Position numbers and translations under genes: made by a program. The notes beneath the pieces were generated by a model. It had not been told where the DNA came from. It ran no database searches and worked only from the letters and a program-made list of their open reading frames with translations. From the NCBI GenBank assembly GCA_019057815.1, contig JAHLWR010000015.1, forward strand, positions 1-64,000: 64,000 nt of DNA, in the 5' to 3' direction. The DNA comes from Candidatus Heimdallarchaeota archaeon. Its GTDB lineage: Archaea > Asgardarchaeota > Heimdallarchaeia > Heimdallarchaeales > Heimdallarchaeaceae. Position 1 is the stretch's first letter; each line of letters begins with the position of its first letter. This document shows positions 18,560-26,104 of this stretch, one piece after another.

Positions 18560-21500
18560 CTATTTTTTTCTTAGGACGAAATATCTGAGACTTATAACTC
18601 CAACAACACTTAGCAGAGCTAAAGGTACTTGCCATAGGAGCCCCTTCCAGCTAGGTGAGTCTGGGTTGTATGTTTCTGTAACTTCAGTAATATCCTTATT
18701 TGATTCACATTGAATATAAGTTTCATCTCCTTTAAAAAACACCAGAATCCATTTTGCATTCTCAGGTATTGTTTCTTTTGGAATTTCGATGTTACAAGAA
18801 CCTAAAACATCAGTCGTATATTTCTTGATACTAATAACTGTTCCATTAGCCATCAAGAAAGTTACTGTAATTTCTTTGTTCCCTAAAGCTCTATCTTCGC
18901 TATCTAACAGTCTTATTTTTATATGACTATCAGTAGTTTCGATCATAAAATGCGTTTGAACAAGTGTTATTTCTAGTTTAAATTCTTCTATCACTGATTC
19001 ATAGTCTTGATTTCCTGCAAAGTATACTCTTATTGTATAGTTACCGATTGGTAGTGGTGGAATGCTAAAAAGCACTTGCCCTAATCCATTTGTGAAAAGA
19101 GTGTAATTTATGTTATTAAAAGTGATTTCTATAGTTTGAGAAGCTAAATACGCTCCACTTTCTGAAAGTAATGTAAATGTTATCTCATCTGAAGTGTTAT
19201 ATTCTATTATCAAAGGATTACATGTTATATTAGTTTTACTTTTTTCAATAGGGATAGTAAGAACAATTTCTAGAGCATTGAAATAATCGTTTTCTTCTAC
19301 AGATATCGTGATTACTAACAAATCACTACTAGTAATTGTAAATGAAAAGCTAACATTACCATATTCATCCGTTAGAAGTTGTTTAGAGCTATCGTAATAT
19401 GCTAAAGTAAAGTTATAATTTGGTATGGGATCATTTAAAGAATCAGACCAGCTTATGAAAATCATTAAGTCTTTTTCTACAACATTGTCAATCCATTCAA
19501 TAGTTATTTGTGGATTGTCTTTTAAGATAGTGATTTCGAAATTCTTAGTGGTTAATGTGAAGTTTAAATCATCTACTTCTACAGTTAGTGTAAGTAAGTA
19601 ATCGTTTGGAAGTAAATAAAACACATTGCTTGTGATAACGAAATACCCTTCAGCATCAGAGGTAAAGATTCCAACTTGGATATCATTAACAAAGACAGTG
19701 ATACTAGCATAACCGATTCCTAAACCTTTGAATGTTACTTGTCCTGTGCTATCTTCTTTGTCGTTAAAAATTCTATTTAGCTGTGATAATTCAATATCGA
19801 CATTTGCTTGAGTTCTTTCGAAGATGAAATAGTATATGAAGTCAAAATATGTAGAAGTTTCATCTATGAAAATAATCAATGTGTATGATCCTACAACTAA
19901 AGATTCGACTAAATCAAATCTGAAAATGCCATCAGAAGCAATAGAAATTGTGTAATTAAGATTCAAGAACTCGAAAACTATCTGGACCTCTGTTAAAATG
20001 CCACCATAAGTGTTGATTTTTCCTTCAACATATCCATCTTCTCCATATGTTCCTGCAAATGATGTTATGTTCTCAATTATTATTATACATTTCACTTCTA
20101 CATTAATGGTCTTTGAAGACTGATAAAACTCTTCATTTCCTTGATACTCAATCAATACAATATGATTTCCTGGTATAATGTTTGTAGGAAGAATTAGAAC
20201 AGCATTTCCCTCTGAATCTGTAGTTAAAGTAACTAGATAGTTCCCATCTATCGATATTATAAGATTTCCACTTATTGGATTATCTTGAGAATCTCTTAAT
20301 TGAATACTTACTGCTGTCTCATTATCGTATTCATGAATCACACTATCTGTCGAAATTATTTCTGTTGTAGCTTTGTACATTGTCAAAATGAAATGTGCTT
20401 CTGTAAACAAGTGATTATCGTTTCCTTGAAACACGATAGTTACTTCATATGTTCCTACAGGTAATGATAATTCTATTTCGAGATATCCATCTGTAGAAGT
20501 TAAATATGCTTCATAAGAGCTTCCGTTAACAACTAGAAGAATTACTTCATTTTCTAATATATCAACTCCTTGAAGATAACCTGTAATCCATGGGATGTTG
20601 TTAGAGTAAATTATCTCTAAATCTAAAATACTTTCAGCTTTAATTACTTCAATGAACGAATTGTAAGTGATAGACGAATATACAACATCTCCTTCAAAAA
20701 GAACTTCAAAATTATGATAACCAGCTTCTAGGAATTTATCAACTAACAGTTGAACATAACCTGAACTGTTTGTTAATCCCATATATTCTTGAGAATTAAT
20801 AATCAGAACGATTTCTTTATTTTGTAATGGATCTCCAGAAGAACCCAAATATACTGTGATTGAAGTTGATATCGTACCATAAATCCCTTGAATAAGAATC
20901 ACGCTCATTTCTGTTTGAAGTTTTTCTTGTTCAGCTACAATTTTTAGAAAACTCTCCTTGTAAATAGCTGTCTCCTTGAAAATAATATCTATTTCATATG
21001 CTCCTGGGATTATTTCCTCTATACTCCAAAACGCTTTCCCCTCAGCATTTGTAACATTTTGACCAATGAGAGAGTTATTGATATAAAATTCAATTATCTT
21101 TCCTTCTAAGGGATTGTTGCTACTATCTCTTAGAATTGCTTCAATTTGAAGAGACATTTCAGTAATTTCGACTGTACCTTGAACGTGTGTATTAACTTTC
21201 CAAATGAGGACTGTTTTAATAATCGATGAAGGAAGAAAGTCAACATTGCCTGTATATACTATCTCAATTAAATATGTTCCAGGAAGAAGGTTTATAGAGA
21301 ACTCGTAATAACCTTGGAAATCCGACAGAGTGGTTTCTACTACTGTTCCATTAATTATCAGCTGTATCTCCGTATCACTAACAGGTTGTTCGTGAGCATT
21401 CTGAATATATCCATCAATCCAATAGATTTCCGAATAATCTCTATTCTGCAAATTGCTTGTAAGATTTGTGGGCATTTTATTAATCTGCAACGAAATAACA

Positions 21501-24898: not shown

Positions 24899-26104
24899 TC
24901 AATCCAATGTGGCGAACTCCGTCTTAGCTTCTGTCTCTTTTTCTTCAGAAACACCCTCAAATAAAACCCCTAGTTCACCAGCTAATTTTCTATGATTAGC
25001 TTCTTGATCGACATTACAAACACCAAATGGACCCAAAGAGAAGTAGCATTCATTCTGAGGTAACCAACCACAATCTGTAATAAGAGCACGACGAGCATTA
25101 GGAGCATCATTTTCATTTCGAATTTTAGAAGTAGCTCGACGCAACCAGATACGGATGTCACTAGCATGACCTAAAATGAAACCACCAGTTGGCATAACTT
25201 TATCCATGGCGGTAGCGAAAGGATCAGGGTTCGCCATTACTTGATTAGTATAAACGACTGCAATATCAAAAGCTTCAGCTAGTCGCATTAACATGTGTAA
25301 GAGCTTGTTCAGGTGTTTTTGTCTTACTGCTAGTTCACCCAAACCACCATATTCGGCTCTGAAGGGGTCCATTAGACTATCTATAATCATTAATTTAACG
25401 TTATTTTTTGGAATGATTGTTCCTGCTTCTTTAAGAGCTAGTTCGATTTGAGATAAGGTTCTAGTATTAGCAACCATGAATCTATCTGTCTTAACATTCT
25501 TAATGTTGTGAGTGTATTCGTAGTAGCTTATTATCTGCTTGAATCTTTGAGTGTTGAAAGATCCTTCAGTGTCAAGCCATATAACTCCTGCTTCTAACCC
25601 CCCAAATTCTGTGGGAAGCATGCAATTCGCGCTAATTGTATAACATATTTGCGTTTTTCCAGATTGTGGAGATCCGTATAATTCTACAAAAGTCCCTGTG
25701 GGTATTCCACCACCTATTAATTCATCGAGCTCTGATGATCCTGTCATTATTTTCTTTCTTTTAACTTCTATTTGTTCCCTCTCATCTAAAGAGAGAAAGA
25801 GTTTTCCTTGATTAGATTCAACCTCTTCTAAAAGTAATTTAGCTGTATTTTCGCTTACTCCTGGTAATTCCATCAGTTGTTTCAAAGTATGTGCTTTGAT
25901 CCCTCTAGGATCTGTAATTCCTTGAGTACCCAAAACTTTGTGTAATCTCTTCTTCATTACTTCAGAAATACCCTTGATACTGGCTAGAAAATCCATTAAA
26001 TCGTCTTGAGGTTTGGATGTAGATGTTTTCTTTTTCTTGGTTGTCTTCTCTTTTGTAATAGATTCTTCTAATTCCATTTCGTCATTCTCTTCTTCTGCAG
26101 CCAT
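24899..26104 (-). CDS. radA: RadA/Rad51-family recombinase, divergent paralog
   Basis: N-terminal HhH, GSPQSGKTQ Walker A, DTEGSF, IIDSL..FRAEY.G.GELA.RQ, TNQVMANPD, GG.ILGH. Confidence 0.9.
   Translation of the reverse strand: MAAEEENDEMELEESITKEKTTKKKKTSTSKPQDDLMDFLASIKGISEVMKKRLHKVLGTQGITDPRGIKAHTLKQLMELPGVSENTAKLLLEEVESNQGKLFLSLDEREQIEVKRKKIMTGSSELDELIGGGIPTGTFVELYGSPQSGKTQICYTISANCMLPTEFGGLEAGVIWLDTEGSFNTQRFKQIISYYEYTHNIKNVKTDRFMVANTRTLSQIELALKEAGTIIPKNNVKLMIIDSLMDPFRAEYGGLGELAVRQKHLNKLLHMLMRLAEAFDIAVVYTNQVMANPDPFATAMDKVMPTGGFILGHASDIRIWLRRATSKIRNENDAPNARRALITDCGWLPQNECYFSLGPFGVCNVDQEANHRKLAGELGVLFEGVSEEKETEAKTEFATLD

Follow-up and report, generated by a model that had tools for sequence, protein, structure and literature searches.

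A divergent radA gene and the gene of a giant surface protein lie side by side in a stretch of 64,000 nucleotides, hereafter the window, from a Candidatus Heimdallarchaeota archaeon (positions 1 to 64,000 of contig JAHLWR010000015.1, assembly GCA_019057815.1). The host genome, labelled G000, measures 3.74 Mb and is 95% complete; the window lies on its contig C44. The radA-like gene (24899..26104, minus strand, like the other operon and cluster features of the window listed below) encodes 401 amino acids, and the nearest database matches to its product carry the label Ca. Heimdallarchaeaceae. It is followed, after a gap of 9 bp, by a gene encoding a membrane-anchored protein of 2109 residues made of immunoglobulin (Ig)-like repeats (18560..24889), flanked on its other side by por genes. 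A GGTGA Shine-Dalgarno sequence (24894..24898) falls directly after the radA stop, the junction reading TGA, GGTGA, four nucleotides, ATG, as proposed in an initial annotation made from the sequence alone, whose positions for the two reading frames were also correct. From this spacing we infer that the two genes are co-transcribed. A charged 50-residue open reading frame (ORF) with its own GGTGA site follows the Ig gene (18330..18482) and is probably the third gene of the operon, five other genomes having ORFs 64–91% identical to it in the corresponding position.

The RadA-like protein features an N-terminal helix-hairpin-helix domain and intact ATPase residues, scores 190 bits on the Pfam Rad51 model, and was classified by alignment and tree as a divergent RadA paralog. 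Its motifs are GSPQSGKTQ (Walker A), DTEG (catalytic), IIDS (Walker B), FRAEYGGLGEL (loop L1) and TNQVMANPD (loop L2). All the changes singled out in the initial annotation are present in a protein that keeps its ATPase motifs: the unusual Walker A, FLSL at the position of the FxxA polymerisation motif, a leucine at the position of the L1 arginine, and charged extensions at both the N- and C-terminus, the latter being an acidic tail which closes in a second FxxL-like motif. Scores on the curated RadA models NF003301 (228, cut-off 259) and TIGR02236 (201, cut-off 361) are below threshold in both cases.

Four genes of the RadA family were found in the host genome, the window copy being the most divergent and the sole one below the RadA cut-offs. 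A canonical radA, with GEFRTGKT and GRG, is located at C26:30530 and passes both cut-offs (431 and 411), while the copies on contigs C11 and C43 pass one each. The idea of an extra, specialised radA was thus borne out, as the window gene is not the only one in the genome; with a canonical radA elsewhere, this copy would be free to specialise. In a maximum-likelihood tree, which took in no eukaryotic Rad51 or Dmc1 rows, orthologs of the paralog from three families form a 100/98 group, and a 98/93 branch separates all cluster-linked RadAs, including those of another order, from the housekeeping copies. The paralog has a clade of its own, with branches long enough for attraction to be possible. 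A broken second copy of the gene, away from the cluster described below, is present in one relative (L193:8140-8454, genome G014).

Alignment of 17 orthologs of the paralog showed that the ATP-binding and catalytic residues are conserved (GKT, DTEG, DS, TN[QH], GHAS), and that FR and RQ of L1, the intercalating leucine and the Pro-Asp of L2 are all retained. The position equivalent to R235 of RAD51 is an invariant leucine, found also in the relatives of family f6. R235 of RAD51 divides DNA into triplets, and strand exchange is crippled when this residue is mutated (PMC12360782; PMC11788929). Because the leucine is invariant and the ATPase residues are kept, the substitution, as judged from the alignment, is selected and not a sign of decay. 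The paralog may pair DNA by a different chemistry, or else serve as a coat or mediator on single-stranded DNA, two options to which we assign about even odds. The polymerisation motif is FxxL throughout the host family, and FxxA (FKKA or FQKA) in the relatives of families f4 and f6. In genera with the tight radA-Ig operon the acidic tail terminates in FATL, FAKL or FASL, which could plug the polymerisation pocket of the paralog. The predicted complex of two copies with ATP and Mg obtained a score of 0.00, which gives no verdict and was not used either way.

The paralog resembles archaeal RadA and eukaryotic Rad51 and Dmc1 in its N-terminal helix-hairpin-helix, in all ATPase residues, in the FR..RQ of L1 and in the leucine at the L238 position of RAD51. 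It differs from them in the R235-to-Leu change, in FxxL, in the Pro-Gln within Walker A, in a post-L2-strand insertion and in the acidic tail; unlike RadA, it scores below the equivalog cut-offs and occupies its own clade. RadB is not known to have either an N-terminal domain or a polymerisation-type motif. The paralog, in contrast, keeps both, and scores far higher on RadA than on RadB models. RadB, aRadC and the Rad51 paralogs, which act as mediators, are additional RecA-fold helpers of strand exchange, a role that would fit the loss of the DNA-pairing residue. The Pro-Asp type of L2 is described as common in archaea in 10.1101/2025.02.19.639135, which also defines 18 Asgard recombinase groups. 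That Heimdall genomes may contain several RadA paralogs was already known (PMC12722695; 10.1101/2025.02.19.639135), but the accessible portions of these two papers do not treat the gene context of the duplicated clades or any link to surface proteins.

The 2109-residue protein has hydrophobic segments only at positions 5 and 2088, corresponding to a signal peptide and to a C-terminal anchor followed by RKK. It matches Pfam Big_3_5 and Big_1 far above cut-off, and has the repeats, signal peptide and membrane anchor of Big_1/Big_3 surface proteins. A T[DN]xxG motif recurs about every 95–110 residues, a spacing which corresponds to roughly 18 Ig-like units; such an array would form a rod several tens of nanometres long. 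The protein is strongly acidic, contains 36 N-glycosylation sequons, and is present in single copy in the genome. Giant surface-type proteins are known, in the same host family, from the aloposons of Ca. Heimdallarchaeum, where tandem genes for 3000–6000 residues accompany a ParA-like ATPase and integration at tRNA genes (PMC8813620); the single 2109-residue gene of the window does not fit this description.

Linkage between the two genes was evaluated in relatives. The assembly covers the downstream side in 21 family genomes; in 18 of them, all from two genera (g1 and g3), the Ig gene starts 9–14 nucleotides past the stop of the radA paralog. These 18 genomes have 19 loci with the tight junction and a G-rich Shine-Dalgarno sequence behind the stop, although the RadA proteins are only about 70% and the Ig proteins only about 40% identical, so that chance does not account for it. 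In a lineage with a 48%-identical RadA, an Ig homolog of 1167 residues is found one 37-residue ORF downstream. Elsewhere the genes are more loosely linked: in two closed genomes they are 3.7 kb apart, with three genes between, including a TFB-like and a membrane gene; in genome G005 the distance is 20 kb; in family f3 (Kariarchaeaceae-like) the paralog heads a 17-kb same-strand run ending in a 2120-residue Big_1 protein; and another order provides three genomes where a Ski2 helicase is two genes away from the paralog and a 1700-residue Ig homolog 24–27 kb away, on one contig. RadA paralog, Ig protein and the dead ATPase described below are jointly missing from genome G017, 92% complete. Absences based on single-protein queries are weak, as such queries miss the Ig giant in f3 and in most of f6, where it is present. 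The association anticipated by the initial annotation is, therefore, conserved, while adjacency in the strict sense is limited to two genera and the near-adjacent lineage.

These data bear on the simplest alternative, that a radA paralog and a functionally unrelated Ig gene came together a single time, in the common ancestor of the two genera. The restriction of adjacency to g1 and g3, and the separation of the genes in G005 and f4, are what such an accident would leave behind. The Ig homolog close to the 48%-identical RadA, however, argues against it, as do the other families holding both genes within 17–27 kb along with the same partner genes, and we consider a chance bicistron quite unlikely.

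The annotation had seen a radA-adhesin operon; the pair does exist, but is only part of the picture, being the tail of a cluster of about ten genes, rearranged yet conserved. In the window, a same-strand run located 8 kb upstream contains the genes for a 613-residue surface protein, a two-transmembrane (2-TM) and a 4-TM protein, a RadB-like ATPase, a nuclease-like protein, a 1051-residue protein and a Ski2-type helicase with a SWIM-type insertion. The two closed genomes show a permuted order, the radA paralog being followed by the Ig giant and then by the run. The order also changes from genus to genus without the set breaking up; other families have the same set, and more distant lineages part of it.

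In several relatives the gene of the Ski2/Hel308-like helicase (34297..36459), which carries a CxC...CxH insertion, immediately precedes the radA paralog; in other relatives variable insertions separate the two genes, and in the window a TnpB element and unrelated genes intervene. The helicase matches the HamB models (E 1e-33), and proteins of HerA fold, such as its neighbour described below, are common in defence systems. The cluster could accordingly be pictured as a defence against mobile DNA, with helicase, nuclease and HerA-fold scaffold arranged as in Hachiman or HerA-based antiphage systems and with the surface proteins as shield or sensor. Yet the HamB match is generic, Hel308-type models scoring higher, and no HamA match was obtained for the neighbours of the helicase, the nuclease-like gene included. 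The near-universal, single-copy presence of the cluster in the family is also unlike that of defence islands, and this explanation is the least probable of those weighed here.

The adjacent gene (36461..39616) encodes a protein of 1051 residues with a HerA/VirB4/CedD fold followed by a winged helix. Its predicted model matches HerA (E 3e-11) and VirB4 in fold searches, and profile comparison with CedD-like proteins, its nearest characterised relatives, reaches a probability of 95%. Walker A is dead (GDKKTRE) and Walker B altered (DDAE). Two proteins of 1100 residues in the f3 cluster were evaluated as possible homologs, but profile comparison gave no tie to the dead ATPase and they were not counted. 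A distant Asgard family encodes a 1266-residue relative of the dead ATPase, with TM segments of its own, after a helicase of Hef-like type (L133:4921-8721).

A dead ATPase with the fold of a conjugation motor is what might be left of an integrated mobile ancestor, its VirB4/VirD4-type motor lost and the linkage of the genes inherited rather than functional. Large adhesins are typical of conjugative elements. Ced and Ted are themselves domesticated type IV systems (PMC9905601). Decay is, on the other hand, difficult to reconcile with ORFs that are intact and full-length in almost every member of the family, with a single copy in each genome, with an ordinary G+C content and with dead motifs that are themselves conserved. 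Conservation across orders further weakens the idea, no integrase or relaxase was found among the cluster ORFs examined, and the published description of aloposons (PMC8813620) is not matched. We regard a domesticated or decaying conjugative element as very unlikely.

The rest of the run comprises a 153-residue protein (39609..40070), a putative PD-(D/E)xK-type nuclease on the basis of a conserved E...IDL.A...FVEAE pattern, with no family match; a RadB-like RecA-fold ATPase (40142..41197; TIGR02237 E 7e-15, below cut-off); a conserved 4-TM membrane protein of no family (41187..41849); a 2-TM protein with a cytoplasmic alpha/beta domain in its predicted model (41850..43256); and a secreted, C-terminally anchored surface protein of 613 residues (43304..45145), encoded directly after the Ig giant in some relatives. 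Structural comparison of the 2-TM model returned no significant match (best Foldseek E 0.036, YbjN-like; best Z 7.4, helical hairpins), and its interpretation as a detached N-terminal domain of VirB4 was not supported by profile comparison. Similarly, no support was found for the idea that the 613-residue protein, of which no fold was predicted, is a fusexin (Atlas best 0.76, no family). Two further helicases are encoded at the far end of the window: an XPD/Rad3-like one (58585..60393), found inside the cluster in other families, and a Hef/FANCM-like one with degenerate motifs (60380..62176), which is near the radA paralog in two closed genomes and features a radA-type promoter signature.

This signature was defined by a matrix trained on the promoters of radA paralogs from other genera and used to rank 3027 genes of the host genome. 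The putative promoter of the window radA (26158..26177), a TATA box preceded by a pyrimidine-rich element, ranks 3, followed by the Hef-like (4), TFB-like (7), 2-TM (24), nuclease-like (34) and 613-residue protein genes (36), as compared to 952, 2187 and 2304 for the housekeeping radAs. The shared signature provides moderate evidence for co-regulation, and only moderate because the matrix also selects TnpB elements and LuxC/LuxE-like genes. Scans for sigma-70 promoters and terminators, with models ill-suited to archaea, remained at chance level.

A few other observations concern the surroundings. A TnpB-only element (26313-27733; tnpB at 26367-27629, minus), with 17-nucleotide inverted arms 88% complementary, sits just upstream of the radA promoter, which it leaves undisrupted. 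A LuxC-like acyl-CoA reductase (C44:77256-78722) and an acyl-protein-synthetase-like gene (C44:83027-84172) have promoter ranks of 14 and 5, and look-alike genes are found near the cluster in G005 and G007. Three large surface proteins, encoded at C12:155191, C16:23305 and C23:13389 (1043, 2496 and 1625 residues), share a region with the 613-residue protein, the last gene having promoter rank 10. A divergent, full-length TFB-like gene with a zinc ribbon is located at 4335-5288 of the window. At C40:99581-101203 and C21:45436-46311 there are TFB-like cyclin-fold genes, recognized by eye and with no family match, and an M50-like membrane gene whose HExxH is degenerate, a distant homolog keeping it intact; genes of both kinds stand inside the cluster in the closed genomes. 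Two f3 genomes have an intact gene for a family B DNA polymerase within the cluster or next to it (L173:12744-15308, L180:4239-6875). At 45233-47834, tandem duplicated 400-residue membrane proteins with near-identical C-terminal halves, single copy in relatives, are encoded divergently from the cluster. Some relatives carry, after the por genes, tandem arrays of 4-TM proteins of 140–190 residues (L039:16439-17458, L040:16012-18367), not found in the host genome.

The closest parallels to the cluster are the Ced system, found in Sulfolobales and Desulfurococcales, and the Ted system of Thermoproteales, which work with Ups pili. In these domesticated type IV systems recombination genes are co-located and co-regulated (PMC9905601, PMC11823120), and Sulfolobus cannot import DNA without CedD (PMC11823120). 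Like them, the cluster is chromosomal, encodes membrane proteins and a surface contact element, is linked to recombination genes and includes a HerA/VirB4/VirD4-fold protein closest to CedD, with a TFB paralog possibly involved. Unlike them, it has a dead ATPase, an Ig-repeat rod in place of pili, and a private set of RadA paralog, RadB-like ATPase and three helicases. It may thus work like Ced and Ted, yet, judging from its gene content, is not a member of either, the motor being dead and neither a CedA/VirB6 channel in the genome nor a CedA1/VirB2 pilin between the cluster genes of the window having been found.

An intact, membrane-anchored CedD-like ATPase is encoded elsewhere in the genome (C12:177659-180460, corresponding to L186:7660-10461), with two TM segments and both Walker A and Walker B. 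It is present in 22 of 24 family genomes, in some with several copies, and is a candidate for the missing motor. Its score lies far below the CedD cut-off (43, cut-off 600).

We propose that the radA paralog and the Ig gene are the recombinase and surface arms of a chromosomal, co-regulated module that would handle DNA at the cell envelope, in a programme of contact-linked DNA import or exchange and recombination. The genes of the module would be activated jointly, possibly by way of a TFB paralog. Cells would be brought or held together by the Ig rod and the 613-residue protein, and the dead CedD/VirB4-like protein would combine with the 2-TM and 4-TM proteins into a membrane scaffold admitting DNA, for which the helicases, or else an intact CedD-like ATPase from another part of the genome, would provide the force. 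Nuclease and helicases would generate single-stranded DNA, which the RadA paralog, aided by the RadB-like protein, would coat in a filament of its own, built through the FxxL interface; this filament would then pair the DNA with the chromosome, or pass it to canonical RadA. We give this proposal about an even chance of being correct.

Several data weigh against it. Walker A is missing from the 1051-residue ATPase in every lineage aligned, and the intact CedD-like gene is unlinked to the cluster and has a promoter rank of 1819. The membrane proteins of the cluster have only 2–4 TM segments; no match to TrbL/VirB6 (PF04610) was found in the 95%-complete genome, where CedA-type proteins are too divergent for the search to exclude them, and ComEC (PF03772) gave no match either, in a search that recognized it in 10 control bacteria. 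No small 2-TM pilin ORF was found between the cluster genes in the window, the only interval screened. The Ig protein is acidic and without known ligand, and the promoter matrix is not specific. As to linkage, the relatives counted are not independent samples; in family f4 and in P0034 the RadA ortholog lies among unrelated neighbours, and neither the Ig giant nor the dead ATPase was found in f4 with the queries used.

Part of these data would be accounted for by a stress or damage regulon without DNA transfer, whose enzymes would act at the membrane to repair the chromosome of the cell itself, the Ig protein being a co-induced aggregation, attachment or envelope protein. The catalytically intact members are indeed all of repair type (Ski2, XPD, RadA and RadB-like, two f3 clusters also having a PolB); the ATPase of transporter type is dead, and the searches revealed neither a channel nor a pilin. 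But a repair regulon leaves unexplained why, across orders, private enzymes have kept the company of surface genes, membrane genes and a CedD/VirB4-fold protein, in a genome that already has Hel308, canonical RadA and two HerA-NurA operons. The latter correspond to HerA-NurA-type pairs at C48:76110-78765 and C24:112944-119513, one beside Hel308 and the other with mre11/rad50-like genes. We judge this explanation unlikely, though worth serious consideration.

No description of the cluster, or of a RadA-adhesin operon, was found in the literature, most subscription papers being outside the search. The way in which Asgard archaea exchange DNA bears on the origin of sex and meiosis. If DNA exchange through the cluster is assumed, Heimdall-group Asgards might have a dedicated, contact-triggered system of chromosomal exchange, with a channel and tether unrelated to Ced and Ted and with their own recombinase, whose FxxL interface and pairing loop would be tuned to incoming DNA, a prokaryotic parallel, in the closest lineage to the eukaryotes, to the division of labour between Rad51 and Dmc1; we put this forward as a speculative and rather unlikely extension. 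A recombinase paralog tied to a surface protein offers a concrete, testable candidate, which is small, soluble-looking and can be compared with the canonical RadA of the same genome. Even if the cluster served repair only, a leucine fixed across orders at the position of the strand-pairing arginine would represent a natural experiment on recombinase mechanism.

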